Below, in pieces: positions 1 to 59,286 of a stretch of DNA of 64,000 bases. Each line of letters starts with the position of its first letter. Position 1 is the first letter of the stretch. The notes beneath the pieces were generated by a model, which had not been told where the DNA came from, did not search any database, and was given only the letters and a program-made list of their open reading frames with translations. Both the position numbers and the translations under genes were made by a program. The stretch spans positions 22,878,001 through 22,942,000 of the forward strand of contig NC_092357.1 in the NCBI RefSeq assembly GCF_963676685.1. Direction: 5' to 3'. Origin of the DNA: Mytilus edulis (Eukaryota).

Positions 1-1044
1 TATTAAATCACGCGCTGTACATGCGCAATTAATAGAAATTAAGATCAAGCATGCACATTATAGAAATACTCTAATGTTAGCTTTAAAAATATGCTACATA
101 TAATAAGATCCAAGATCAATTTAAATGAGAAATACATTTAAAATTAAACTGTCAATTGTTCTTGAACAATTGAGAGGTCTTTCCTTTTGTAATGTAAAAT
201 ACATAATCCAACAGACGTAGAATGTATTGAAAAGGTCAAGGTCAACCTTAAAAAGCTCGAAAACACACTAAAAATCCTTTATATAAGGTTAAAAACACTA
301 AATTCGCACTCTGGGACATGACCTTGACCTTTGACCTTTTGACCTTTGGCAAGGTCATTAGTCCCCAATGCCATTACTGAAGACCCCAAGGGTCTAGGAC
401 CTTTGGTTATATAGAAAAAGCTGATTTTGTGTTTTCAGAAACCTAAAACAGGCTTTATGCCCCTTAAAAAAAGGTCAAATCTCTTCGGTCAAAATGTAAC
501 AAAGTTGCGCGGTAATGACCCAAACATTTTCCACTATTTAAAACTTCTGTAAGTATAATGGTTGCTGAGATTAATCCAAAACAAGGTGTAAGGTCAAAGG
601 TCAAGGTCAACATACAAATTTGACCTTGAGATATTTTTCGAAGATACAAGAATTGATGATGAATGGTGAAGATCCTAGGTCTCTACGACTTACGGTTTCT
701 GAGTTTTGGTGGTCCACCGACACCGGTTAATTTTCATAGGGGCATAACCCTACCAATGAGTCGTTGAATCTTTTCGATCCAAATGTAACGAAGAACTGGG
801 GTCTGGTCCTGAACAAATTTCACCCTTTGTTTTTTTTCTACCTATTATGGTTACGGTGTTGGAACGATAACAAGGTTTTTTGGTTTCGGAGGAATTACTC
901 CGAACCGACAAAATATTTCGACTAACAGGGTGAGTTCCAGATAGGTATTCATGACACCGATACAAAGTGTGAACATGAAAGCGACACGTCTTACGGTTTG
1001 GGCTGCTAACTTCGTCAAAGTTTGGCGGAAGAATAATAATAATA

Positions 1045-2807
1045 ATTAAAAACCAATTGTTCAAAGAACAATTGAAGGTCTTTCAACTAATAAAGATCTA
1101 TTTTGACATGAAAATATTAAAATTCAGTTAAAAATGTCAGTTCCTATGGCTTTATGATGTATAAATAGGAATTTAAAGCAAAGGTCAAAATCTAGAACGT
1201 CCAATTAACCTTTGACCTTGACCTCAATTTCAAGGTCATAGACTTAACATCTCGAATCAAAAGACACTAGTTCCTTAATATGTAAGGTTCATGAGTAATA
1301 TCACTTTACGCATAATTCTAAATATAAGAGAGGCAAAAACTCCCATTTATTGTCTACGCACCCTTCCAATCAAAATTTATGAGTTACGACATGTCGCAAC
1401 TAACAATTTAGTAAAAATAATTTGTCGAAATCTTATAAAGTTAATGAAAGTAAGTGAAAATAAGCCAAAATCAAAATTTAAAATTTGACCTTGACCTTTG
1501 ACCTTGACCTAATTTTCATTTTTTTGGACCAAGGATCTTAAATCAAAAGACCCTAGGTCTCTATCACTTATGGTTTACCAGTTAGAAATGCAAATCACTT
1601 ATATCATATATAAAAGTGGGATAACTCTCATATGGAGTCTCCGGATAGCTTCGGTCCAAATGAAACAGAACATCCTGAGGATATAACGAGCAATTTGGAA
1701 AAATAAATTTGTCGGTTTCTTATACGGTTGCGAAGCCTTAGAGATAACAATAAAAACAGTGTTCGGGGAGATAACTCTTATATGGGAAAGTATTCGGTTA
1801 AGCAGAGTTGGTTTCAAAAGCGTATAAACTGTTCGATATCATATTTCAAATATCTAAACGACATCTTGCGAAACAAAAAAACAGCGAAGGTAAAAAAAGT
1901 TGGCGGAAGAAAAAAAAAAATAATTAAAAACCAATTGTTCAAAGAACAATTGAAGGTCTTTCAACTAATAAAGATCTATTTTGACATGAAAATATTAAAA
2001 TTCAGTTAAAAATGTCAGTTCCTATGGCTTTATGATGTATAAATAGGAATTTAAAGCAAAGGTCAAAATCTAGAACGTCCAATTAACCTTTGACCTTGAC
2101 CTCAATTTCAAGGTCATAGACTTAACATCTCGAATCAAAAGACACTAGTTCCTTAATATGTATGGTTCATGAGTAATATCACTTTACGCATAATTCTAAA
2201 TATAAGAGAGGCAAAAACTCCCATTTATTGTCTACGCACCCTTCCAATCAAAATTTATGAGTTACGACATGTCGCAACTAACAATTTAGTAAAAATAATT
2301 TGTCGAAATCTTATAAAGTTAATGAAAGTAAGTGAAAATAAGCCAAAATCAAAATTTAAAATTTGACCTTGACCTTTGACCTTGACCTAATTTTCATTTT
2401 TTTGGACCAAGGATCTTAAATCAAAAGACCCTAGGTCTCTATCACTTATGGTTTACCAGTTAGAAATGCAAATCACTTATATCATATATAAAAGGGGGGA
2501 TAACTCTCATATGGAGTCTCCGGATAGCTTCGGTCCAAATGAAACAGAACATCCTGAGGATATAACGAGCAATTTGGAAAAATAAATTTGTCGGTTTCTT
2601 ATACGGTTGCGAAGCCTTAGAGATAACAATAAAAACAGTGTTCGGGGAGATAACTCTTATATGGGAAAGTATTCGGTTAAGCAGAGTTGGTTTCAAAAGC
2701 GTATAAACTGTTCGATATCATATTTCAAATATCTAAACGACATCTTGCGAAACAAAAAAACAGCGAAGGTAAAAAAAGTTGGCGGAAGAAAAAAAAAAAT
2801 AATAATA
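1045..2807 (-). mobile_element. Two near-identical subfamily-A HINE bodies (1045-1922, 1923-2807), each interrupted at its (AAT)n tract
   Basis: Each starts attaaaaaccaattgttcaaagaacaattgaaggtctttcaact and ends ttggcggaag-A(n)-(AAT)n, running directly into the next left end. Confidence 0.8.
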
Positions 2808-3751
2808 ATTAAAAACCAATTGTTCAAAGAACAATTGAAGGTCTTTCAACTAATAAAGATCTATTTTGACATGAAAATATTAAAATTTAGTTAAAAATGT
2901 CAGTTCCTATGGCTTTATGATGTATAAATATGAATTTAAAGCAAAGGTCAAAATCTAGAACGTCCAATTAACCTTTGACCTTGACCTCAATTTCAAGGTC
3001 ATAGACTTAACATCTCGAATCAAAAGACACTAGTTCCTTAATATGTATGGTTCATGAGTAATATCACTTTACGCATAATTCTAAATATAAGAGATGCAAA
3101 AACTCCCATTTATTGTCTACGCACCCTTCCAATCAAAATCAATGAGTTACGACATGTCGCAACTAACAATTTAGTAAAATAAATTTGTCGAAATCTTATA
3201 AAGTTAATGAAGTAAGTGAAAATAAGCCAAAATCAAAATTTAAAATTTGACCTTGACCTTTGACCTTGACCTAATTTTCATTTTTTTGGACCAAGGATCT
3301 TAAATCAAAAGACCCTAGGTCTCTATCACTTATGGTTTACCAGTTAGAAATGCAAATCACTTATATCATATATAAAAGGGGGGATAACTCTCATATGGAG
3401 TCTCCGGATAGCTTCGGTCCAAATGAAACAGAACATCCTGAGGATATAACGAGCAATTTGGAAAAATAAATTTGTCGGTTTCTTATACGGTTGCGAAGCC
3501 TTAGAGATAACAATAAAAACAGTGTTCGGGGAGATAACTCTTATATGGGAAAGTATTCGGTTAAGCAGAGTTGGTTTCAAAAGCGTATAAACTGTTCGAT
3601 ATCATATTTCAAATATCTAAAAGACATCTTGCGAAACAAAAAAACAGCGAAGGTAAAAAAAGTTGGCGGAAGAAAAAAAAAAATAATAATAATAATAATA
3701 ATAATCAGAACAAAACCTATAGGTCTTTCAACTGAAAGGTTGAAAGACCTA
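2808..3751 (-). mobile_element. Complete, uninterrupted subfamily-A HINE (~944 bp)
   Basis: A-type left end at 2808, then body, (AAT)n, and cagaacaaaacctat followed by the hairpin aggtctttcaac-tgaaag-gttgaaagacct (3721-3750). Confidence 0.8.
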
Positions 3752-3760
3752 ATAATAATA

Positions 3761-5542
3761 ATTAAAAACCAATTGTTCAAAGAACAATTGAAGGTCTTTC
3801 AACTAATAAAGATCTATTTTGATATGAAAATATTAAAATTCAGTTGAAAATGTCAGTTCCTATGGCTTAATGATGTATAAATATGAATTTCAAGCAAAGG
3901 TCAAAATCTAGAACGTCCAATTAACCTATGACCTTGACCTCAATTTCAAGGTCATAAACCAAGGATCCCAAATCAAAAGACCCTTGGTCTGTATTATGTA
4001 TGGTTCATGAGTAATATCACTTTAAACATAATTCTAAATATAAGAGGGGCGAACACTCCCATTTATTGTCTACGCACCCTTGCAACCAAAATTTATAAGT
4101 TACGACATGTCGCAACTAACAATTTAGTAAAAATAATTTGTCGATATCTTATAAGGTTAATGAAAATAAGTGAAAATAGGCCAAAATCAAAATTTAAAAT
4201 TTGACCTTGACCTTTGACCTTGACCTAATTTTCATTTTTTTAGACCAAGGATCTTAAATCAAAAGACCCTAGGTCTCTATCACTTATGGTTTACCAGTTA
4301 GAAATGCATATCACTTATATCATATACAAAAGGGGGGATAACGCTCAAATGGAGTCTCCGGATAGCTTCGGTCAAAATAAAACTGAACATCCTGAGGATA
4401 TAACGAGCAATTTGGAAAAATAAATTTGTCGGTTTCTTATACGGTTGCGAAGCCTTAGAGATAACAAGAAAAACAGTGTTCGGGGAGATAACTCTTATTT
4501 GGGAAAGAATTCAGTTAAGCAGAGTTGGTTTCAAAAGCGTATAAACTGTTCGATATCATATACCATATATCTAAGCGACATCTTGCGAAACAAAAAAACA
4601 GCGAAGGTAAAAAAAGTTGGCGGAAGAAAAAAAAAAATAATAATAATAATAATAATAATTAAAAACCAATTGTTCAAAGAACAATTGAAGGTCTTTCAAC
4701 TAATAAAGATCTATTTTGACATGAAAATATTAAAATTCAGTTAAAAATGTCAGTTCCTATGGCTTTATGATGTATAAATAGGAATTTAAAGCAAAGGTCA
4801 AAATCTAGAACGTCCAATTAACCTTTGACCTTGACCTCAATTTCAAGGTCATAGACTTAACATCTCGAATCAAAAGACACTAGTTCCTTAATATGTATGG
4901 TTCATGAGTAATATCACTTTACGCATAATTCTAAATATAAGAGAGGCAAAAACTCCCATTTATTGTCTACGCACCCTTCCAATCAAAATTTATGAGTTAC
5001 GACATGTCGCAACTAACAATTTAGTAAAAATAATTTGTCGAAATCTTATAAAGTTAATGAAAGTAAGTGAAAATAAGCCAAAATCAAAATTTAAAATTTG
5101 ACCTTGACCTTTGACCTTGACCTAATTTTCATTTTTTTGGACCAAGGATCTTAAATCAAAAGACCCTAGGTCTCTATCACTTATGGTTTACCAGTTAGAA
5201 ATGCAAATCACTTATATCATATATAAAAGGGGGGATAACTCTCATATGGAGTCTCCGGATAGCTTCGGTCCAAATGAAACAGAACATCCTGAGGATATAA
5301 CGAGCAATTTGGAAAAATAAATTTGTCGGTTTCTTATACGGTTGCGAAGCCTTAGAGATAACAATAAAAACAGTGTTCGGGGAGATAACTCTTATATGGG
5401 AAAGTATTCGGTTAAGCAGAGTTGGTTTCAAAAGCGTATAAACTGTTCGATATCATATTTCAAATATCTAAACGACATCTTGCGAAACAAAAAAACAGCG
5501 AAGGTAAAAAAAGTTGGCGGAAGAAAAAAAAAAATAATAATA
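3761..5542 (-). mobile_element. Two interrupted subfamily-A bodies (3761-4657, 4658-5542)
   Basis: A-type left ends at 3761 and 4658. The matching right ends are displaced to the stack at 6506-6659. Confidence 0.75.
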
Positions 5543-6482
5543 ATTAAAAACCAATTGTTCAGAGAACCATTGATGGTCTTTCCACCACTTACAACATATT
5601 TTGATGTAAAAATATTAAAAATTCAGTTGATATGTCAGTTCCTATGACTTTATGATGTCTAAATATGAATTTGGAGCAAAGGTCAAAATCTAGAACGTCC
5701 AATTAACCTATGACCTTGACCTCAATTTCAAGGTCATAGACTAAGGATCTCAAACCTAAAGACACTAGTTCCTTAATTATATATGGTTAATGAGTAATAT
5801 CACTTTACCCATAATTCTAAACATAAGAGGGGCGAAAACTCCCATTTATTGTCTTCGCACCCTTTCAACCAAAATTTATAAGTTACGACATGTCGCAACT
5901 AACAATTTAGTAAAAATAATTTGTCGATAAGTAACACGGTTTTTTAAAATAAGTGAAATAAGCCCAAATCAAAATTTATAATATGACCTTGACCTTTGAC
6001 CTTGACCTTATTTTCATTTTTTTGGACCAAGGATCTCAAATCAAAAGACCCTAGGTCTCTATCACTTATGGTTTACCAGTTAGAAATGCATATTCTTATA
6101 TCAAACATAAAAGGAGGGATAACTCTCATATGGAATCTATATACGGCTTCGGTCAAAATAAAACAGCACATCCTGAGGATATAACGAGCAATTTGGAAAA
6201 ATAAATTTGTCGGTTTCTTATACGGTTGCGAAGCCTTAGAGATAACAAGGAAAACAGTGTTCGGGGAGATAACTCTTATTTGGGAAAGTATTCGGTTAAG
6301 CAGAGTTGGTTTCAAAAGCGTATAAACTGTTCGATATCATATTCCAAAAATCTAAGCGACATCTTGCGAAACAAAAAAACAGCGAAGGAAAAAAATTAGG
6401 CGGAAGAAAAAAAAAAAAAAAAATAATAATAATAATCAGAAGAAATCCAATAGGTCTTTCCACGGAAAAGTGGAAAGACCTA
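5543..6482 (-). mobile_element. Complete subfamily-B HINE
   Basis: B-type left end (cagagaaccattgatggtctttccacc), B-diagnostic body variants (tttggagcaaa, ctcaaacctaaa, ggaatctatat, aaattaggcgg), and B hairpin aggtctttccac-ggaaaa-gtggaaagacct (6452-6481). Confidence 0.8.
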
Positions 6483-6659
6483 ATAATAATAATAATAATA
6501 ATAATCAGAACAAAACCTATAGGTCTTTCAACTGAAAGGTTGAAAGACCTAATAATAATAATCAGAACAAAACCTATAGGTCTTTCAACTGAAAGGTTGA
6601 AAGACCTAATAATCAGAACAAAACCTATAGGTCTTTCAACTGAAAGGTTGAAAGACCTA
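6437..6659 (-). repeat. Stack of four HINE terminal hairpin modules (B,A,A,A) separated by (AAT)n
   Basis: Hairpins at 6452-6481 (B) and 6521-6550, 6578-6607, 6629-6658 (A). Confidence 0.9.
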
Positions 6660-6671
6660 ATAATAATAATA

Positions 6672-8443
6672 ATTAAAAACCAATTGTTCAAAGAACAATT
6701 GAAGGTCTTTCAACCAATAAGGATCTATTTAGATATGAAAATATTAAAATTCAGTTGAAAATGTCAGTTCTTATGGCTTAATGATGTATAAATATGAATT
6801 TTAAGCAAAGGTCAAAATCTAGAACGTCCAATTTACCTATGACCTTCACCTCAATTTCAAGGTCATAGACTAAACATCTCAAATAAAAAGACACTAGTTC
6901 CTTAATATGTATGGTTCATGAGTAAAATCACTTTACGCATAATTCTTAATATAAGAGGGGCGAAAACTCCCTTTTATTGTTTACGCACCCTCGCAACCAA
7001 AATTTATAAGTTACGACATGTCGCAACTAACAATTTAGTAAAAAGAAATTGTCGATATCTTATAAGGTTAATGAAAAAAGGTGAAAATAAGCCAAAATCA
7101 AAATTAAGAATTTGACCTTGACCTTTGACCTTGACCTAATTTTCATTTTTTTGGACCAAGGATCTTAAATCAAAAGACCCTAGGTCTCTATCACTTATGG
7201 TTTACGAGCTAGAAATGCATATCACTTATATCATATATAAAAGGGGGGATAACTCTCATATGGAGTCTCCGGATAGCTTCGGTCAAAATGAAACAGAACA
7301 TCCTGAGGATATAACGAGCAATTTTGAAAAATAAATTTGTCGGTTTCTTATACGGTTGCGAAGCCTTAGAGGACACAAGAAAAACAGTGTTCAGGGAGAT
7401 AACTCTTACAAGGTAAAGTTTTTTGTTACGCGGTGTCTGTTTCAGAAGCGTATTAACTGTTCGATATCATATACCTTATATCTAAGCGACATCTTGTGAA
7501 ACAAAAAAACAGCGAAGGAAAAAAAAGTTGGCGGAAGAAAAAAAATAAAAATTAAAAACCAATTGTTCAAAGAACAATTGAAGGTCTTTCAACTAATAAA
7601 GATCTATTTTGACATGAAAATATTAAAATTCAGTTAAAAATGTCAGTTCCTATGGCTTTATGATGTATAAATATGAATTTAAAGCAAAGGTCAAAATCTA
7701 GAACGTCCAATTAACCTTTGACCTTGACCTCAATTTCAAGGTCATAGACTTAACATCTCGAATCAAAAGACACTAGTTCCTTAATATGTATGGTTCATGA
7801 GTAATATCACTTTACGCATAATTCTAAATATAAGAGAGGCAAAAACTCCCATTTATTGTCTACGCACCCTTCCAATCAAAATTTATGAGTTACGACATGT
7901 CGCAACTAACAATTTAGTAAAAATAATTTGTCGAAATCTTATAAAGTTAATGAAGTAAGTGAAAATAAGCCAAAATCAAAATTTAAAATTTGACCTTGAC
8001 CTTTGACCTTGACCTAATTTTCATTTTTTTGGACCAAGGATCTTAAATCAAAAGACCCTAGGTCTCTATCACTTATGGTTTACCAGTTAGAAATGCAAAT
8101 CACTTATATCATATATAAAAGGGGGGATAACTCTCATATGGAGTCTCCGGATAGCTTCGGTCCAAATAAAACAGAACATCCTGAGGATATAACGAGCAAT
8201 TTGGAAAAATAAATTTGTCGGTTTCTTATACGGTTGCGAAGCCTTAGAGATAACAATAAAAACAGTGTTCGGGGAGATAACTCTTATATGGGAAAGTATT
8301 CGGTTAAGCAGAGTTGGTTTCAAAAGCGTATAAACTGTTCGATATCATATTTCAAATATCTAAACGACATCTTGCGAAACGAAAAAACAGCGAAGGTGAA
8401 AAAAGTTGGCGGAAGAAAAAAAAAAATAATAATAATAATAATA
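6672..8443 (-). mobile_element. Two interrupted subfamily-A bodies (6672-7550, 7551-8443)
   Basis: A-type left ends at 6672 and 7551. The 6672 copy has a diverged patch at about 7370-7480. Confidence 0.75.
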
Positions 8444-9384
8444 ATTAAAAACCAATTGTTCAGAGAACCATTGATGGTCTTTCCACCACTTTCAACATAT
8501 TTTGATGTGAAAATATTAAAAATTCAGTTGATATGTCAGTTCCTATGACTTTATGATGTCTAAATATGAATTTGGAGCAAAGGTCAAAATCTAGAACGTC
8601 CAATTAACCTATGACCTTGACCTCAATTTCAAGGTCATAGACTAAGGATCTCAAACCTAAAGACACTAGTTCCTTAATATGTATGGTTTATGAGTAATAT
8701 CACTTTACACATAATTCTAAACATAAGAGGGGCGAAAACTCCCATTTATTGTCTACGCACCCTTTCAACCACAATTTATAAGTTACGACATGTCGCAACT
8801 AACAATTTAGTAAAAATAATTTGTTGATAAGTTATACGGCTTTTGAAATTAAGTGAAAATAAGCCAAAATCAAAATTTATAATATGACCTTGACCTTTGA
8901 CCTTGACCTTATTTTCATTTTTTTGGACCAAGGATCTCAAATCAAAAGACCCTAGGTCTCTATCACTTATGGTTTACCAGTTAGAAATGCATATTCTTAT
9001 ATCAAACATAAAAGGGGGATAACTCTCATATGGAATCTATATACAGCTTCGGTCAAAATAAAACAGCACATCCTGAGGATATAACGAGCAATTTTGAAAA
9101 ATAAATTTGTCGGTTTCTTATATGGTTGCGAAGCCTTAGAGATAACAAGGAAAACAGTGTTCGGGGAGATAACTCTTATTTGGGAAAGTATTCGGTTAAG
9201 CAGAGTTGGTTTTAAAAGCGTATAAACTGTTCGATATCATATTCCAAAAATCTAAGCGACATCTTGCGAAACAAAAAAACAGCGAAGGAAAAAAATTAGG
9301 CGGAAGAAAAAAAAAAAAAAAAAAATAATAATAATAATCAGAAGAAATCCAATAGGTCTTTCCACGGAAAAGTGGAAAGACCTA
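8444..9384 (-). mobile_element. Complete subfamily-B HINE
   Basis: B left end at 8444, B body variants, B hairpin at 9354-9383, followed by one A hairpin at 9405-9434. Confidence 0.8.
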
Positions 9385-9438
9385 ATAATCAGAACAAAAC
9401 CTATAGGTCTTTCAACTGAAAGGTTGAAAGACCTAATA

Positions 9439-12080
9439 ATTAAAAACCAATTGTTCAAAGAACAATTGAAGGTCTTTCAACTAATAAAGATCTATTTTGA
9501 TATGAAAATATTAAAATTCAGTTGAAAACGTCAGTTCCTATGGCTTCATGATGTATAAATATGAATTTAAAGCAAAGGTCAAAATCTAGAACGTCCAATT
9601 AACCTTTGACCTTGACCTCAATTTCAAGGTCATAGACTAAACATCTCGAATCAAAAGACACTAGTTCCTTAATATGTATGGTTCATGAGTAATATCACTT
9701 TACGCATAATTCTAAATATAAGAGGGGCGAAAACTCCCGTTTATTGTCTACGCACCCTTGCAACCAAAATTTATAAGTTACGACATGTCGCAACTAACAA
9801 TTTAGTAAAAATAATTTGTCGATATCTTATAAGGTTAATGAAAATAAATGAAAATAAGCCAAAATCAAAATTTAGAATTTGACCTTGACCTTTGACCTTG
9901 ACCTAATTTTCATTTTTTTGGACCAAGGATCTTAAATCAAAAGACCCTAGGTCTGTATCACTTATGGTTTACCAGTTAGAAATGCATATCACTTATTTCA
10001 TATACAAAAGGGGGGATAACGCTCATATGGAGTCTCCGGATAACTTCGGTCAAAATAAAACAGAACATCCTGAGGATATAACGAGCAATTTGGAAAAATA
10101 AATTTGTCGGTTTCTTATACGGTTGCGAAGCCTTAGAGATAACAAGAAAAACAGTGTTCGGGGAGATAACTCTTATTTGGGAAAGTATTCGGTTAAGCAG
10201 AGTTGGTTTCAAAAGCGTATAAACTGTTCGATATCATATTCAAAAAATCTAAGCGACATCTTGCGAAACAAGAAAACAGTGAAGGAAAAAAAAGTTGGCG
10301 GAAGAAAAAAAAAAATAATAATTAAAAACCAATTGTTCAGAGAACAATTGAAGGTCTTTCAACTAATAAAGATCTATTTTGATATGAAAATATTAAAATT
10401 CAGTTGAAAATGTCAATTCCTATGGCTTTATGATGTATAAATATGAATTTAAAGCAAAGGTCAAACTCTAGAACGTCCAATTAACCTTTGACCTTGACCT
10501 CAATTTCAAGGTCATAGACTAAACATCTCGAATCAAAAGACACTAGTTCCTTAATATGTATGGTTCATGAGTAATATCACTTTACGCATAATTCTAAATA
10601 AAAGAGGGGCCAAAACTCCCATTTATTGTCTACGCACCCTTGCAACCAAAATTTATAAGTTACGACATGTTGCAACTAACAATTTAGTAAAAATAATTTG
10701 TCGATATCTTATAAGGTTAATGAAAATAAGTGAAAATAAGCCAAAATCAAAATTTAGAATTTGACCTTGACCTTTGACCTTGACCTAATTTTCATTTTTT
10801 TGGACCAAGGATCTTAAATCAAAAGACCCTAGGTCTCTATCACTTATGGTTCACCAGTTAGAAATGCATATCACTTATATCATATACAAAAGGGGGGATA
10901 CCTCTCATATGGAGTCTCCGGATAGCTTCAGTCAAAATAAAACACAACATCCTGAGGATATAACGAGCAATCTGGAAAAATAAATTTGTCGGTTTCTTAT
11001 ACGGTTGCGAAGCCTTAGAGATAACAAGAAAAACAGTGTTCGGGGAGATAACTCTTATTTGGGAAAGTATTCGGTTAAGCAGAGTTGGTTTCAAAAGCGT
11101 ATAAACTGTTCGATATCATATTCAAAAAATCTAAGCGACATCTTGCGAAACAAGAAAACAGTGAAGGAAAAAAAAGTTGGCGGAAGAAAAAAAAAATAAT
11201 AATTAAAAACCAATTGTTCAGAGAACAATTGAAGGTCTTTCAACTAATAAAGATCTATTTTGATATGAAAATATTAAAATTCAGTTGAAAATGTCAATTC
11301 CTATGGCTTTATGATGTATAAATATGAATTTAAAGCAAAGGTCAAACTCTAGAACGTCCAATTAACCTTTGACCTTGACCTCAATTTCAAGGTCATAGAC
11401 TAAACATCTCGAATCAAAAGACACTAGTTCCTTAATATGTATGGTTCATGAGTAATATCACTTTACGCATAATTCTAAATAAAAGAGGGGCCAAAACTCC
11501 CATTTATTGTCTACGCACCCTTGCAACCAAAATTTATAAGTTACGACATGTTGCAACTAACAATTTAGTAAAAATAATTTGTCGATATCTTATAAGGTTA
11601 ATGAAAATAAGTGAAAATAAGCCAAAATCAAAATTTAGAATTTGACCTTGACCTTTGACCTTGACCTAATTTTCATTTTTTTGGACCAAGGATCTTAAAT
11701 CAAAAGACCCTAGGTCTCTATCACTTATGGTTCACCAGTTAGAAATGCATATCACTTATATCATATACAAAAGGGGGGATACCTCTCATATGGAGTCTCC
11801 GGATAGCTTCAGTCAAAATAAAACACAACATCCTGAGGATATAACGAGCAATCTGGAAAAATAAATTTGTCGGTTTCTTATACGGTTGCGAAGCCTTAGA
11901 GATAACAAGAAAAACAGTGTTCGGGGAGATAACTCTTATTTGGGAAAGTATTCGGTTAAGCAGAGTTGGTTTCAAAAGCGTATAAACTGTTCGATATCAT
12001 ATACCATATATCTAAGCGACATCTTGCGAAACAAAAAAACAGCGAAGGTAAAAAAAGTTGGCGGAAGAAAAAAAAAAATA
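9439..12080 (-). mobile_element. Three interrupted subfamily-A bodies (9439-10320, 10321-11201, 11202-12080)
   Basis: A-type subTIR gaaggtctttcaact at each left end. The 10321 and 11202 copies share private variants (caaactctaga, aaaagaggggcc, ggttcaccag). Confidence 0.75.
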
Positions 12081-13029
12081 ATTAAAAACCAATTGTTCAG
12101 AGAACCATTGATGGTCTTTCCACCACTTACAACATATTTTGATGTGAAAATATTAAAAATTCAGTTGATATGTCAGTTCCTATGACTTTATGATGTCTAA
12201 ATATGAATTTGGAGCAAAGGTCAAAATCTAGAACGTCCAATTAACCTATGACCTTGACCTCAATTCCAAGGTCATAGACTAAGGATCTCAAACCTAAAGA
12301 CACTAGTTCCTTAATATGTATGGTTTATGAGTAATATCACTTTACGTATAATTCTAAACAAAAGAGGGGCGAAAACTCCCATTTATTGTCTACGCACCCT
12401 TTCAACCAAAATTTATAAGTTTAGACATGTCGCAACTAACAATTTAGTAAAAATAATTTGGTGATAAGTTATACAGCTTTTGAAAATAAGTGAAAATAAG
12501 CCAAAATCAAAATTTATAATATGACCTTGACCTTTGACCTTGACCTTATTTTCATTTTTTTGAACCAAGGACCTCAAATCAAAAGACCCTAGGTCTCTAT
12601 CACTTATGGTTTACCAGTTAGAAATGCAAATTCTTATATCAAACATAAAAGGGGGGATAACTGTCATATGGAATCTATATACGGCTTCGGTCAAAATAAA
12701 ACAGAACATCCTAAGGATATAACGAGCAATTTGGAAAAATAAATTTGTCGGTTTCTTATACGGTTGCGAAGCCTTAGAGATAACAAGAAAAACAGTGTTC
12801 GGGGAGATAACTCTTATTTGGGAAAGTATTCGGTTTAAACGAGTTGGTTTCAAAAGCGTATAAACTGTTCGATATCATATTCCAAAAATCTAAACGACAT
12901 CTTGCGAAACAAAAAAACAGCGAAGGAAACAAATTAGGCGGAAGAAAAAAAAAAAAAATAATAATAATAATAATAATAATAATCAGAAGAAATCCAATAG
13001 GTCTTTCCACGGAAAAGTGGAAAGACCTA
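12081..13029 (-). mobile_element. Complete subfamily-B HINE
   Basis: B left end at 12081, B body variants, B hairpin at 12999-13028. Confidence 0.8.
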
Positions 13030-13212
13030 ATAATAATAATAATAATCAGAACAAAACCTATAGGTCTTTCAACTGAAAGGTTGAAAGACCTAATAATAAT
13101 AATAATCAGAACAAAACCTATAGGTCTTTCAACTGAAAGGTTGAAAGACCTAATAATAATAAACAGAAGAAATACAGTAAGGTCTTTCCCTTTTGTAAAA
13201 GGAAAGACCTTA
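12984..13212 (-). repeat. Final stack of terminal hairpin modules (B,A,A,C)
   Basis: Hairpins at 12999-13028 (B), 13062-13091 and 13122-13151 (A), and 13179-13211 (C). Confidence 0.9.
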
Positions 13213-13683
13213 ATTACATACAACAAAAATATTGGATTGCCTCCCTTACACTTGACATTTATTTAACACTGTCGAAACACACATTTTTAAATCATTTGAT
13301 GTTACTACATGTACTACTTCATAGTAAACTACCTTAAAACCAAACGTTGACCCTATTTGGAAAGGACGGACGCACGGCCCCATCGAAACATGATATGCTC
13401 CTACAAAATATTGTTAGCGGTACATACAATTGTTTAGAAAGGGAATCGCCAGAGGTAATTCTTCTTAGATAATATAAATATTTATAGACTAAAATTGTCT
13501 AAAGATATTTGTTTTGCATTGAATAGATTATCATATAATAAAATCAAATGCTTAAAAGAATTACATAATTTTTAATCGTAAATTTACAAAACTTTTATGT
13601 CTTACAGAAAAAAAGATATAAATAAACTCAAATGTATAATACTAGCATCGTAAATCAAAGTCAAGGGGGTAATGTAGCATGCA

Positions 13684-23900: not shown

Positions 23901-25849
23901 GTGTCTTAGATTTGTCTATTCTATGGTGTAATTTGAATACATCGTCATACATCCATCACGGTGTGACGTAAAACTCCATTACTATATACAGAGAAAGATC
24001 AATGCAGACATAATATACTTTATACTAATCAATATGTTTATTGACTTTCTCTTGTCATTTACATGCATGTTTGTTGATCAAGATTTTTGTTGATTTTTTA
24101 TCAGGAATCTCTTGCTTTTGTTAGTCTTTTGTGGTTTTTATTTTAATTTCAGTTCATTTTTATGTTTTGGAGTTTGTGTCTGACGTCCATTTTCATTGAA
24201 CTAGTATATATTTAGCTTAGGGGCCAGCTGAAGGTCGCCATCGGGTGCAGGATACTCTCGCTGTGTTAAAGACTCTGTTTTTGGCATTCGGCTGTTTTCT
24301 ACTCTTTGGTTGGGTTGACATTAGATGAATTTGACTATTTTATAAGTTCAGTTTTTGCAATTGGCTCTCCCACTGGTTTGGTTCTTATACATTTTGGTTT
24401 TTATATGTTCGGCTTTGAGTGTTCCCAATGAAGGCAAATCAAGAAAAAGCATTTCACTTGAATAAAATAAATGAAATTTTTAGTGTTATTTTCATTCTAA
24501 TTTTTTTTCTGCAACACTCTTAAAACAGAAAGATTGTTATTACATTTATGCTGCATGGTTTAAAGTGGACAGGATTTGGTGAACAGTACTGAGATAAATA
24601 AGATTAAGTAAATTCCTGTTAAGTGTTCAGTCGCAAATATTACAGAGTTAAAATGAAATGGTTACAAGTAAAAAGGGCCATTTTACAATCTTCAACAATG
24701 AACAAAATCAGTTGCAATGCATAATTTAACCAATATTCCATTCGTTTATTTTCGAAATCCTACATTTATTATATGCTTGACCATAAGAAGATCAACTTGC
24801 TGAGAGACCCTACTTTTTCTACATTTTTTTAATTCTTTCCTTAGGCATTAGTATTTGCTTATTAATTTCGCGTAAACAATTGGTACGCATAGACTCGGTG
24901 AATTTGGAATTAATATATTTCCAGCCATATACATGTATATGGTTCTGATGTGTTTGTCTAAGGAAAGAACTTGGTTTTTTTTTGTATGAGAAAATCAATT
25001 AAGAATTGTTATTAAGTCAGTCTGTTTATATAGTATATATTTTAAGTAATGGTTGACCTATTGCTTAAATGGATTATGTTTCTTAACTCTTCTATAGGCA
25101 ACGGTCATTTAAAAGTTTATTGACAATATGAGTATTAATTTGCTGACCCGTTTATATACGATCAAATGCTTTTACATGTAATTGCAATAAAATGACCCAA
25201 CTTTTAGACGTACAATGTATATAAACAATGGCGAGTCAGATAAAAATAATAATATTTATAACCTTTCTTTAAATCATCCAATTAATTAAAGAACTATGTG
25301 TCAAGCTTCATTCTATCTAGACATAAAAAATGTTTGGTATTCATCCTCGTCTATTTTTTCTACACATTTTGGGATATCTTCCACTAAACGCCATTACAAC
25401 CTGACCGTTTTGAGCTTACAATTGTTATCTTATTTGAATTTTGAATTTTGTATTTGCTATTTGTTGTATAAGCGTAAAAAAAGCTGTAACATTTAAAATG
25501 TTTAAGAGTCGCTGCAATCAATAAATACACGTTTTTGGAACAATGTGTTCTAAAGCAGTCGTTGCCGACTGACAATTTTTGAATCTCAAATTGGTCAGAC
25601 TGTATACCTGTTGAATCCATTACTATCCCCAGTACCTGTTAACTACGGGTCATTAAAAAGCAGCGTTCTCACCTCTGGCTCTATGATATGCTATCTCTTA
25701 ATAGTTTCACGCTATTTTGTGTTTATTTTTAACATCAGGTTCATTGCAGTATGTACCAACACAAAAAACCGTCAAATCAATTGTTCTTCTGGACGAAGGT
25801 GTTGATGTATTGTGTTGTTGATACATGTATGTGTTGTTTTTGTTTCAGG

Positions 25850-26760
25850 TTTCTTTGTTTTATTTTGATATTTTTATTGTCTTTGAATTGGTTCATAAAA
25901 TAAACTGACAGTCACACGTATCAAATAATATGTTTATTTTTATTTCGGATTTCCCTTGGTTTTATATTATATTTCTATAGTCTTAAAATTTGTTCATCGA
26001 ATATATTGACGCGCATCAAATGAGATGTTACACAATGTATACTTTTACGATATATGTTTATTTTAGTTTCGGATTTCTCTTGGTATTTTATATTGGTTTT
26101 ATCGTTGTCTTTGAATTGGTTCATGGAGTATATTGACGTGCATCAAATGAGATGTAATACTTTTACGATATGTTTATTTTTATTTCGAAGTTCTCTTGGT
26201 TTTATATTTGTATATCTATATGTCTGGTTCATCGAGCATATTGACGCGCATCATATATAAGTTGTTATACGTTTACGTTGTTTATTTTTATATTCGATTT
26301 CTTATGGTTTGTATTTTTATTTTTATTGTCTTTGAATTGGTTCATGGAATTCATATTGACGCGCAACAAATCAGATGTTATACTTTAACGATAGGCATGT
26401 TTTTATTTCGGATGGTTTTCTCTTGGTATTTCATGTCTTTGAATTGGTTAATCGAATGCATTGACGCATCAAATGAGATCTTATATTTTGAAGATATGTT
26501 TATTTTTATTTCGGATTTCTCTTGGTTTATATTGGTATTTCTATTGTCTTTGAATTGGTTCATGGAATATATTTACACGCATCAAATGTGATGTTATATT
26601 TTTAAGATAATTATGTTTATTTTTATTTCCGATTTATCTTGGTTTTATATTGGTATTTCTGTATATATAGTCTTTAAATTGGTTCATTGGGTATGTTGAT
26701 GCATATCATGAATATTTTTTGTTTCGGATTTCTCTTAGTTTAATATTCATACTTATAGAA
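25850..26760. repeat. Degenerate ~115-125-bp tandem repeat, ~7-8 copies
   Basis: Recurring tttatttttatttcggatttctcttggt...tctttgaattggttcat...attgacgcgcatcaaatgagatg. Confidence 0.85.
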
Positions 26761-27865
26761 TCTATAATGAACGTTTTATCGACTATACTTTGGTAAAAAA
26801 TAAGGTGAATAGGATTTCTTGCTTCAGGTTTCTCTTGCTTTTATATTCTATATTCTTCAAATGTTTGAGACATTGAAAAAATATTGTACTAATAATGAGT
26901 ATTTTTTGGTTTTAAATTGTTCTTGATTTTATATTGTAACTGCTATAGTCCTAGTATATTGGATCGAATATATTTAAGCTAAAATATTATTCTTTTTCCC
27001 TTTTCTTTCGTTTGAATAGTATCACTGTTCTGTACCTTTGCTTTTAGAAAAATTCCCTATTTGAGAAAGTTTAATTCATGTCCCAAACAGGGCTTTTCCT
27101 TGAACGTTTAGAACCACTAGATATTTACACGTGAAAATTTCAGTCTGTCTTTATCATGCAAAATCCTCTATTTATGCGAGGCAAACCATTATATCGTTTC
27201 ATTACACCATTGACGTAAGGAGTACATTAAAACAAGATGTTGAAATCAGCTTGACCTTTTTGAACAATTCATAAGATATGATAGAAGACGTCTGTTTTGT
27301 ATTCTCTGTAATTACATATTGATGAGGCTATAGCTGTTTGATTCGGTTCTTCTTTCGCTGAGGCTTTTATCTCTTGCATTTGAACCAGTGACGAATGAAA
27401 TATTTAAGTGATCAATGCATAAACACAATGAAAGAGCCTTGACACGTTTCGTATTGCAATCATTAAAGTAATTTTCACTCAAGTAGATTATTCCAATAAA
27501 ACGGAAGTATATGGGTTTTTTTTTTCTCATGCAATTAATGTTCTTGAGTTGTTATTGCAAATTTCATATGTAAAAACGTTGTTCTTTTGAAGTACACAAG
27601 TTCAACAAAAGACGTCATCTGTTAGCAATATGTTAAGGGTGAAATAAAGCAAATGAAAAGAAAGAACGATAAAGAAAGAAAGAAACATTTTTTTTCAAAT
27701 TGTGTTTCAAAATACCATTAAATCACTACGTAATTGAATTCTATCATACAGTGTATCATTCGTAAAACGCACGTTCTAAAGGTACATTTGAAATGACGCA
27801 AATTGATATAATCGATAGAAATGTGTTGCAGGTCATACACAATCGATAGATATTGAATGATATCG

Positions 27866-28039: not shown

Positions 28040-29030
28040 ATATCGATTCAATAGTTATTTAATTATTTGACACGAATCGATATTTATTGAATGTTCTGAC
28101 ATCGACTTGATTGTCATTGAATAACCTTACACCGACTTCATACTTATTGAATGAAGGACATCAACTCAGTAGTCATTTTTGAAATTGATCTGACATCAAT
28201 TCGATAGTTATAGAATGGTCTGATATCGATTCAATAGTTATAAAGTATTGAATGATCTTATATCGATTTGATAGTTATTGAATGCTCTGACATGAACTCT
28301 ATATTTATTGAATGATCTGACAAGAATTCGATATTAATTAATAATCGTCATCGATTCGATAGTTATTTAATAATCTGACATTGACTCGATAGTTATTGAA
28401 GATTTTACTATGATTCGATAGTTAATAAATAATCTGACCTGACATTGACTTGATATTCATTGAATGATTTGATTTCGACTCGATAGTTTTTGAATGATTT
28501 GACATCAATTCGATACTTATACATTGCTATCACACCGATTTGGTAGACTAGTTATTTAATGATGTGACATCGTCTCAATAGATAATGAATGATCTGATAT
28601 CGATTAGATATTCATTGAATGGTCTGACATTGACTCGATAGTTATAGAATGGTCTGACATCAATTCAATACTTACTGAACATTCTGACATCGATGGTGTA
28701 GGCATTATATGATCTGACATCGACTCGATTAGTTATTGAATGGTCAAATATCGAGCAAATAGGTTTTGAATGGCTTTATTGAATGGTCTGATACCGCCTC
28801 GTTATAATAAAGAATTTGACATCAACCTCAATATTGATTGAATGATCTGACATGAACTATAAACCCGATAGTTATTCATTGAACTGACATCAACCTGATG
28901 GTATTGAATAATCTGATATCGACTCGATATTTTTACAGTGGTCGTCAATCGATTTGTTAGTTATTAGATGATCTGACATCGTCTCGATAGATATTTAAGG
29001 ATCTGATAACGACTCGATATATCATGATCA
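28040..29030. repeat. Degenerate ~30-bp minisatellite (~30 copies)
   Basis: Consensus approximately gacatcgactcgatagttattgaatgatct. Confidence 0.85.
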
Positions 29031-41530: not shown

Positions 41531-41686
41531 AATCCCCGGACCCTGGATCGGCCCCTGGTTATATAATCTAAAAGTACCAATGATATTAGTTTGAATGCTT
41601 TGGTTTAATCTCTTTAAAAATAATAAAATTACCGATACCATATTGATGTAATTGATACTTTATATAACTAATAATTAAATTCAGAC

Positions 41687-42162
41687 AAGTTGGACCATAA
41701 TACTGTAATACCTCAACTTCAATGCGATTTGTGTACTCGACTTGTGTGGTAGAGAAGTTGGACCATAATACTTCAATAACTCAACTTCAATGCGATTTAT
41801 GTACTCGACTTGTGTGGTAGAGAAGTTGGACCATAATACTTCAATACCTCAACTTCAATGCGATTTGTATACTCGACTTGTGTGGTAGAGAAGTTGGACC
41901 ATAATACTTCAATACCTCAACTTCAATGCGATTTGTGTACTCGACTTGTGTGGTAGAGAAGTTGGACCATAATACTTCAATACCTCAACTTCAGTGCGAT
42001 TTGTGTACTCGACTTGTGTGGTAGAGAAGTTGGACCATAATACTTCAATAACTCAACTTCAGTGCGATTTGTGTACTCGACTTGTGTGGTAGAGAAGTTG
42101 GACCATAATACTTCAATACCTCAACTTCAGTGCGATTTGTGTACTCGACTTGTGTGGTAGAG
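41687..42162. repeat. 68-bp tandem repeat, 7 near-identical copies
   Basis: aagttggaccataatacttcaatacctcaacttcaatgcgatttgtgtactcgacttgtgtggtagag at 41687, 41755, 41823, 41891, 41959, 42027 and 42095. Confidence 0.97.
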
Positions 42163-42639
42163 ACAGCTTTTTATGTTACATGCAATGAAAAAAGGCTACA
42201 AAGATCTATTGTTTGCTTTGGAAAATTTTTGTTATCTTAGTCAGTGTTTTATGACATATTGCTTAAGAATCATTATATACTGAAGTGCATCTTATGTTTA
42301 AGAAATTAGTCGAACACATCTTTCATCTGAAGTTGCATAACAAAGTTATATAAAAAGCTACATTGTTTAAACGAGACATAATTAAAGTAGGTAATAATAT
42401 AAACACAAATTGGATATTAAGAACAAAAGCTTTTGCTGATCATATATTCTCTTAGCTATTTAATTAAAAGAAGAATGCATGTGGTATATTTATAACTATC
42501 TCTGGATATCGAAAATTGCTACTTTTTTATATTTACCAAACATTTTCGTACTTTACGAGTTTTATAACCCACATCCTATTACCGACTATCGGTAAAGCAG
42601 ATGAAACAGGTAACAATGATCAAAATCTGCTGTACGCCA

Positions 42640-55136: not shown

Positions 55137-55815
55137 ATATTCCAGATATATACAAATACATTTACTATAACTTTGTCTTTAACAATTCAACATGCAGGAA
55201 CACATTCCTTTGATAGCCTGTTTTGAATCCTGAGAAGTCATACTTTATAAAAGATGGCATAATGTTCTTTCAATATCTTTTTCTTCTCATTTTGACATCA
55301 AAAATAAGGCCTCTCTGTGGAAGGCTTGCACAATTTGTCTTGACATGCTTGATGGTGTGGGTTGATATCCCAGATATATAGAAATAGATTTACCCTAAAA
55401 TATTGTCTTTAACAATACAACACGCAGGAAGACATTCCTACTCTGTGTTTAATCCTGTGAAATAGTACTTCGTAAAAGATGCCATAATGTTCTTTCAATA
55501 TCTTTTTTCTTCTCATTTTGACATTAGAAATAAGGCCTCTCTGTGGAAGGCTTGCATAATTTGTCTTGACATGCTTAATGGTGTGGGTTGATATCCCAGA
55601 TATATAGAAATAGATTTACCGTAAAATTTTGTCTTAAACAATACAACACGCAGGAACAAATTCCTAGTCTGTGTTTAATCCTGAGAAATAGTACTTTACA
55701 AAAGATGCCATAATTTCCTTTCAGTATCTTTTTCTTCCCATTTTGAAATGAGATATAAGACATCTCTGTGAAAGGCTCGCAGAATTTTTCATGACTTGCC
55801 ATACGGTGTGGGTTC
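55137..55815. repeat. ~226-bp tandem repeat, 3 copies
   Basis: gatat-ccagatatata-aaata-attta... starts at 55137, 55364 and 55590. Confidence 0.92.
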
Positions 55816-58076: not shown

Positions 58077-59286
58077 GTTAGACCATGTCTTAGGTACTGC
58101 CGGTCAAGCTGTCGGAATACGAGGTACATACGACGATGACTTCATCGATAGATTAAATCACAAATATACTGTGATGCTATTAGTGATATTTACGGTAATA
58201 GTGAGTACAAGTCAATATGTCGGCGATCCAATAGAATGTTGGTGTCCGACAGACTTTACGGAAAATCGAGTCGATTATACAAATTTCGTATGCTGGGTTT
58301 CGAATACTTATTATATTCCCATGCAGAATCAAATCCCTGCTCAGTACGACCAACGTAGAGAACAGGAACTTACATATTATCAATGGGTTCCACTTATTCT
58401 TCTTGTATGCTCAATGTTTTATAAGGTTCCCAGATTAATATACAAAGTTCTTAATTCATATTCCGGGATCAGCATAGATAAAATTAACGGGATGGCACGT
58501 GATACACAATACCTTGCACCGGAGGATCGGGAAAAGAAATTGAAGCATATATCCAAATACATGGGACAGTGGTTGAAATCTGCCTCACCACATAGGGCCG
58601 GTCTTTGTCCGAACCTGCGTACGCAGATAGGAAACGTCTGTTTCTTTCTTTGCGGACGTCATTTTGGAAATTATCTAACAACAGTGGCTATGGTATACAA
58701 GATATTATTTTTGGTAAACTCGATTGTAATGATGTATTTGATGAATTCATTTATGGGATCAAAATACAGTGTATACGGATTTGAAGTTCTAAATTCGCTC
58801 TATGAAGGAGAAGATTGGACCTATTCTCCTAGATTCCCACGTGTTACTCTCTGTGATTTCGAAATTCGTCAGATGACAAATTTACAACGATGGACTGTAC
58901 AATGTGTGCTTCCTGTTAATCTTTTCAACGAAAAAATATTTATATTTCTGTGGTTTTGGATGGTTTTTATTGCCATTGCAAATGGTTTTGGTTGTTTGAC
59001 TAATCTCTATGGATACCTTTTGCCTCATCATCGGCGTTCATACATACGAAAGTATCTTAAAATCAACGATCTTCACAAAAAGACTGATTCTGATAGACGA
59101 ATCAGAGCAGACTTTGTAAAGGACTTCTTGAAACAGGATGGTATTTTCGTATTACGTCAAATAAGTAACAATGCCAATGACGTAATAGCTTCAGAGGTCA
59201 TCAGATATTTATACCGAGATTTCTTAGAAAAATATAAACAAAGCGCAGACGATAACAGCAACATTGAAAATGCAGATTCAGTGTGA
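58077..59286 (+). CDS. inx: Innexin (invertebrate gap-junction protein, unc-9/unc-7-like), main coding exon
   Basis: Open frame from acceptor ttttctctttatttag|G TTA GAC, encoding LDHVLG...DDDFIDRLNHKYT, QYVGDPIECWCP, CW, signature YYQWVP, FPRVTLCDF, QCVLPVNLFNEKIFIFLWFW. Four hydrophobic segments and two Cys pairs in the extracellular loops; stop TGA at 59284-59286. Confidence 0.97.

Follow-up and report, generated by a model that had tools for sequence, protein, structure and literature searches.

Within 13 kb of the Mytilus edulis genome, the motif GGTCTTTC recurs in hairpins and in distant single copies that change in step, which raises the question of what keeps them alike. The window that we analysed is a stretch of 64,000 nucleotides (G000:C14:22,878,001-22,942,000), in which the motif occurs 37 times against 1.34 expected, with 36 copies within 176-13209. 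The first-pass annotation had distinguished three subfamilies, A, B and C, and read their motif copies as a three-way code, in which matching ends stop a left end from being mobilised with the wrong right end. We find that these repeats are the ends of non-autonomous Helentrons (HINE/HLE2) on the minus strand. Most probably, the elements nest in the 5' (TAT)n tract of one another, and their repeats covary as they likely pair, with tolerance for one mismatch and no subfamily key.

The stacked elements and their coding partner

The copies in the stack comprise 11 hairpins and 14 single copies, each of the latter adjoining a CAATTG..CAATTG palindrome. On the minus strand, every unit follows the same plan: a 5' subterminal inverted repeat (subTIR), its inverted repeat (IR), a (TAT)n tract, the body, a 3' subTIR, a stem-loop and a T-rich end. 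What had been called the hairpin is the 5' subTIR with its IR, and the so-called distant subTIR corresponds to the 3' subTIR next to the palindrome. Predicted folding energies of the A, B and C hairpins are -11.9 to -12.5 kcal/mol (z -5.8 to -7.5). Positions are numbered from the first G of GGTCTTTC, and the key at positions 9-11 defines the end classes A (AAC), B (CAC), C (CTTTT-type) and D (CCC).

The three hairpins and the three subTIR variants are present as first described, and the A and B hairpins differ by one base pair, at position 9, compensated across the stem. The three-way code stands for A and B, where it amounts to one base, whereas C deviates: its 3' subTIR (CTTTT) matches the outer arm of the hairpin only, and the inner arm (CCTTT) differs at position 10, a T-G wobble on the element strand. 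Outer arm and IR agree at this position in 21% of 14 C units. Likewise, a subTIR changing in step about 900 bp away is found for all three B hairpins and one A hairpin, each of which has a matching subTIR at about 880 bp and no other end in between, whereas the C subTIR (176) and the C hairpin (13181) are 13 kb apart, with 13 A/B bodies nested between them. Along the element strand, the ends are ordered caabBAAAabBAAaaabBAAaAAAC (5' hairpins in lower case, 3' ends in upper case); the 14 3' ends face 11 hairpins, leaving three A bodies without a hairpin.

Several features place these elements among HINEs. The 5' subTIR lies a few bases from the end and forms a hairpin with the adjacent IR, a stem-loop close to the 3' end comes after the 3' subTIR, and a (TAT)n microsatellite lies near the 5' end. 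The elements are non-coding, with just two 150-aa open reading frames (ORFs), both of chance size, overlapping the stack, and both ends are shared with an autonomous partner encoding Rep, helicase and apurinic/apyrimidinic endonuclease. At 25 solo units, read as occupied sites only, both flanks are T-rich and no obvious duplication is seen. We rejected a canonical Helitron (HLE1; 5' TC, 3' CTRR, A^T target, no inverted repeats) on the element ends, which are TTAGG.. and ..TTTTAA and carry subTIRs. A miniature inverted-repeat or other cut-and-paste element with terminal inverted repeats was rejected as well, the 3' repeat lying about 30 bp internally and the partner being a Rep-helicase (RepHel), not a DDE transposase.

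The autonomous partner anticipated by the first-pass annotation was found. A PF14214 search of the assembly gave 150 matches, and 40 kb was read around five of them, chosen among those whose ORF is close to 3,000 aa. These five are intact-looking autonomous Helentrons of 17-19 kb with ORFs of 2,975-3,026 aa, on chromosomes C5, C6, C8, C10 and C14, and four of them lie inside or beside HINE stacks. The C6 copy is a solo element of 19.1 kb (G000:C6, about 26,971,186-26,990,370) with CAC ends and a 2,987-aa ORF. Its domains are Helitron_like_N, PIF1, Exo_endo_phos, OTU, DUF6570 and Herpes_teg_N, of which Herpes_teg_N and OTU precede Rep, helicase and endonuclease; DUF6570 is described as a marker of HLE2 (PMC11417382). 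A family 3' end of the CAC type follows the ORF in 5/5 coding copies, and a family hairpin precedes it in 3/5. Because the ORF of the autonomous copy fixes the orientation, the hairpin is the 5' end and the elements lie on the minus strand. Over the first 720-730 bp, the window elements A3 and B1 share about 90% identity with the autonomous copies, and over the last 45-56 bp 87-96%; matching the coding copies at both termini, they are therefore internal-deletion derivatives. The 3' part of D elements has no match at the 3' ends of the five coding copies (two D elements compared).

Covariation, likely pairing and mismatched ends

The covariation extends across the genome. In the 1.37-Gb assembly, to which all genome-wide counts refer, there are 5,592 family hairpins and 3,722 3' ends of the A, B or C type. 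Among oriented hairpins, 431 are AAC/GTT and 2,440 CAC/GTG, against 26 AAC/GTG and 18 CAC/GTT, which makes 2,871 matched and 44 mismatched A/B hairpins. A control C-to-T change at the same hairpin site is found 27 times, so the mismatches stand at the level of point mutation. Since this control count is similar and all resolvable discordant hairpins (11/11) sit on CA-type bodies, we regard them as decay and not as lineages. The A/B change is thus compensatory genome-wide.

All three arms were compared in 221 de-duplicated units running from a hairpin to a 3' end, taken from the window and from 59 + 40 + 20 + 40 stretches. The 59 stretches were chosen by position on C1, with one segmental duplicate removed; the others were chosen on D ends (40), around RepHel genes (20) and around A-rich stacks (40). 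Core positions 2-8 agree in 98-100% of the units. At position 9, the 5' and 3' subTIRs carry the same base in 206/221 units (182/190 without D), and the three arms are identical at positions 9-11 in 114/221 (114/190 without D). The outer arm at position 10 is matched by the 3' subTIR in 98% of the 190 non-D units, and by the adjacent IR in 73%. A tree of 48 bodies shows two changes of the 3' key, three of the 5' key and 19 of the hairpin flank type. We do not claim a repeated independent A/C switch; the tree has two changes, but a single CAC clade is not rejected (approximately unbiased test, p 0.052), and the bodies look mosaic.

These patterns support a shared constraint on the motif copies that fits base pairing, as had been proposed from the window. 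We infer that the partner RepHel nicks at the T-rich 5' end and that, on the displaced single strand, the 5' subTIR pairs first with the IR and then switches to the 3' subTIR, as in the model of Bao and Jurka (2013). The 5'-3' subTIR helix would stack on the 3' palindrome, leaving a T-rich junction unpaired and setting the end point. Selection on pairing, not templated copying, would keep the motifs in step. The common core of 8-9 bp would suffice for any pair of ends, and a single mismatch would weaken the pairing without forbidding it. At 15 real head-to-tail junctions, the predicted 3'-5' subTIR fold has the lowest energy in 3/5 matched and 1/10 mismatched cases. Folded without the IR, matched junctions give -14.5 to -18.8 kcal/mol, and those with a position-9 mismatch -13.8 to -15.5 kcal/mol.

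On the other hand, RepHel may bind the motif copies as protein-DNA sites, with positions 9-11 covarying through shared descent and hairpin stability. Positions 2-8 are invariant in all families, and the coding copies all have CAC 3' ends despite the abundance of A, C and D elements, so that one enzyme class may serve all. We consider this explanation unlikely, since binding alone does not predict that the outer arm at position 10 is tracked by the distant 3' subTIR more closely than by the IR.

The first-pass annotation had also suggested that the motifs are copied from one another during transposition. Such templated rewriting would accommodate the hairpin flank types, which occur with both keys and change 19 times on the tree against two or three times for the key. 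Nevertheless, mismatches are kept through hundreds of copies: AAC/GGT hairpins, an A subfamily with an altered IR and a bulged yet stable stem, number 365, and the CAT and D families and the IR of C persist as well. Copying between motifs is therefore disfavoured, and we judge it very unlikely. The shuffling of flanks may instead reflect recombination among stacked 50-bp hairpin modules.

Elements with non-matching ends bear directly on the end-matching key. The assembly holds 2,077 D-type 3' ends, many of them in arrays, and 20 perfect CCC hairpins, which resemble a different family. None of the 31 D-ended units has a matching CCC 5' hairpin; the hairpin is CAC in 24, ACC in six and AAC in one. 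Ten D units are solo in non-family flanks (two have flanks in common), and D copies on C2, C3 and C4 are 96.5-96.6% alike over 2.5 kb, with homology stopping at both ends. The ACC5'/D3' elements have an A-G mismatch at position 9, the same as an A5'/B3' chimera would have, and in the first 500 bp the C1 and C3 copies share 99.6% identity. An AAC5'/CAC3' chimera is present twice, 31 Mb from one site to the other and in different hosts, with the same 5' module and bodies 97.7% alike. The coding copy on C5 likewise has an AAC 5' end and a CAC 3' end. The hairpin of CAT-ended units is CAC in 12/12, and the bracket partner of AAC-CTTTCG hairpins is B in 3/5.

A strict key, under which a 5' end is mobilised solely with a 3' end of its own subfamily, agrees with the units of 840-930 bp, where 121 of 126 have same-class ends and five are A/B crossings, one of them a point mutant and two the copies of this chimera. 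It also agrees with the cost of a position-9 mismatch, about 3-4 kcal/mol in the junction folds. Against it stand the excess of D ends over perfect CCC hairpins, the dispersed D copies with sharp ends, the solo D units, the ACC5'/D3' elements on two chromosomes, the chimera at two sites and the autonomous C5 copy. Moreover, B hairpins precede 4/51 A units, from which we estimate about two crossings by neighbour availability, and one or two are seen. A strict key is accordingly extremely unlikely, and the idea that wrong end pairs are barred has to be given up: intact dispersed elements with non-matching ends exist, including ones with the A-G mismatch at position 9. We claim no depletion of cross-class swaps, the numbers being too small.

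We also notice distant families with the same GGTCTTTC core and CCC and CTC keys (stretches L069 4030-6060, L047 3999 and L052 4002). The L069 element joins a CCC hairpin to a CTG-type 3' subTIR.

Several points weigh against tolerant pairing without a key. The folding energies speak to plausibility only, and a protein reading all three sites would give similar covariation. A weak preference for same-class ends may exist: the position-9 agreement among non-D units leaves room for one, and among A units compared with near-identical neighbours (body at least 97%), the 5' flank differs in 17/52 with no case crossing class. The A/C switch may have happened only once. In addition, the unit samples were picked by pattern and are enriched for stacks and D ends.

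Nested stacks and D-family arrays

New elements lie within the (TAT)n tract of a host, immediately internal to its 5' hairpin, and the ends close like brackets. Innermost bracket pairs are of the same class in 182/189 cases (shuffled mean 135, maximum 153), and outer pairs in 192/222 (shuffled within stretch, mean 163, maximum 180). Whole elements inserting into one another would make the ends match in stacks, with no key needed. A5 and A7 are 99.5% alike and their nested passengers B1 and B2 97.8%; less alike than their hosts, the B insertions are therefore independent. The host body follows the 3' end in 56/111 cases of the first batch, or 31/70 without the two longest stacks, a hint of self-targeting. 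Self-targeting above chance is not claimed, as the background tract density varies with the threshold: 11 tracts give 217 per Mb and 1 tract gives 20 per Mb.

Local tandem amplification or an assembly artefact, with the pattern as copy noise, might produce bodies as similar as A1, A2, A5 and A7 (99.3-100% identical) and the three A bodies that lack hairpins. This is hardly credible here, given that the nested B passengers are merely 96-98% alike and that stacks of similar kind, in differing orders, lie on at least seven chromosomes. Stacks of about 60 kb with runs of at least 13 hairpin modules of 50 bp are seen at C1:27.37-27.43 Mb and C1:53.375-53.435 Mb. Meanwhile, a mini-element of about 61 bp, in which the IR is directly followed by the 3' palindrome (stretches L066 4646-4750 and L096 2735-2780), likely arose by loss of the sequence between two direct repeats, the IR and the 3' subTIR.

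D elements form head-to-tail arrays of units 99.9-100% identical, with a 190-bp spacer between units, which is compatible with a rolling-circle mechanism. Such arrays lie at G000:C2:50.645-50.678 Mb and C4:46.34-46.41 Mb, with up to about 25 copies among the matches listed. The spacer follows 16/63 D ends and 0/451 A/B/C ends, and at one locus it is present solely between two units. As a speculation with a rather low chance of being right, subTIR pairing may act as a graded termination switch. Matched ends would close efficiently, and the resulting single units would target their own (TAT)n tract and build nested stacks. At mismatched D ends, termination would be leaky; copying would run on through a captured 190-bp spacer and generate satellite-like arrays. 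Against such a switch, the spacer may have been captured a single time long ago, and the next hairpin often adjoins A/B ends too (114/414).

Table 1. Features of the nested stack in the window, and examples of D arrays in other stretches
Feature	Position	Strand	Basis
Whole nested stack: C-type HINE host, 10 A and 3 B bodies	143..13214	-	end order
C 3' palindrome (stem-loop)	153..172	-	sequence, fold
C 3' subTIR (key CTTTT)	175..188	-	motif scan
C body with, at its end, the (TAT)n tract into which the A/B stack went	189..1044	-	92-94% identity to 7 intact 0.9-kb C units elsewhere
A1: 3' palindrome, subTIR (1077), body	1045..1922	-	
A2: 3' end (1955) and body	1923..2807	-	100% identical to A5
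A3, complete unit: 3' subTIR 2840, 5' hairpin 3721-3750	2808..3752	-	
A4: 3' end (3793) and body	3761..4657	-	
A5: 3' end (4690) and body	4658..5542	-	
B1, complete unit: 3' subTIR 5575, 5' hairpin 6452-6481	5543..6483	-	
A 5' hairpin modules belonging to outer hosts, three in a stack (6521, 6578, 6629)	6500..6660	-	
A6, most diverged A: 3' end (6704) and body	6672..7550	-	
A7: 3' end (7583) and body	7551..8443	-	
B2, complete unit: 3' subTIR 8476, 5' hairpin 9354-9383	8444..9385	-	
A 5' hairpin module (9405-9434)	9390..9436	-	
A8, A9, A10: 3' ends (9471, 10353, 11234) and bodies	9439..12080	-	
B3, complete unit: 3' subTIR 12113, 5' hairpin 12999-13028	12081..13030	-	
Two stacked A 5' hairpin modules (13062, 13122)	13045..13153	-	
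C 5' hairpin: outer arm = 5' subTIR CTTTT, inner arm CCTTT	13179..13211	-	
D array/spacer examples (other stretches)	L223 3013-3243; L246, L247, L320-L321	- (L223)	

Elsewhere in the window, unrelated tandem repeats lie at 25828-26955, 28062-29023, 41615-42231 and 55146-55733 (periods of about 110, 30, 68 and 226 bp), and a single-exon innexin ORF of 371 aa (PF00876, E 7e-89) lies at 58171-59286 on the plus strand.

Relation to known elements

The family is new and its class is known; covariation together with a pairing model was already published in 2013 (PMC3627910). Bao and Jurka (2013) describe compensatory mutations that preserve the ATIRs (asymmetric terminal inverted repeats) as well as the 5' hairpin in a related pair of Culex Helitron2 elements. 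In their model, the hairpin is destroyed when the 5' ATIR pairs with the 3' ATIR, and this pairing fixes the end point. Our elements resemble Helitron-1N1_CQu as well as Helitron-1N2_CQu, in which the 5' ATIR lies in the 5' hairpin and the 3' ATIR upstream of the 3' hairpin (PMC3627910). Unlike the Culex pair, which is two consensus elements, the mussel family offers thousands of countable copies that tolerate single mismatches, and its partner has an endonuclease domain.

Helentrons, HINEs and DINE-1 share with our elements subTIRs of 11-13 bp, a partial IR, a microsatellite near the 5' end, a 3' stem-loop, an apparently T-rich target, a Rep-helicase-endonuclease partner with OTU, and subtypes of differing subTIR in one genome (PMC4067079, PMC2374699). 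In contrast, the microsatellite here is (TAT)n and is itself the target, which yields deep nesting. Families are classed by their subTIR (Thomas et al., 2014, PMC4067079); because just 8-9 subTIR bases are identical, A, B, C and D are separate families by the 11-bp rule. A fixed mismatch between 5' and 3' subTIRs is described for DINE-1 of D. mojavensis (Yang and Barbash, 2008, PMC2374699), and one subTIR mismatch predominates in most elements of Cg_HINE from the Pacific oyster (PMC7492417). Cg_HINE has the same substructures, with element-specific changes in subTIR, IR and stem-loop; its central repeats are satellite-like, whereas A, B and C lack such repeats and D has them. The word 'nested' is absent from the main text of that paper.

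The self-insertion model for FoHeli likewise includes several 5' termini and 5'/3' chimeras of different elements (Chellapan et al., 2016, PMC5148889), with one nested example, unlike the stacks seen here, which hold tens of elements and reach 60 kb. HELIANO defines subfamilies by the co-occurrence of left and right ends. A literature search, with closed journals and supplements outside its scope, found no report of a subfamily key or of nesting in an element's own microsatellite.

A strict key would have meant that transposon subfamilies are kept apart by a new DNA-pairing rule, and the genome refutes it. If the graded switch were true, the family and its intact 3,000-aa partners would amount to a ready series of natural mutants in which to study how HLE2 elements terminate. 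The Helentron family is large and young, its coding partners are intact and its ends vary naturally, and it provides material for testing the pairing model of 2013. Nested arrays of 13-60 kb, moreover, have a clear route of origin in a transposon bearing its own target.

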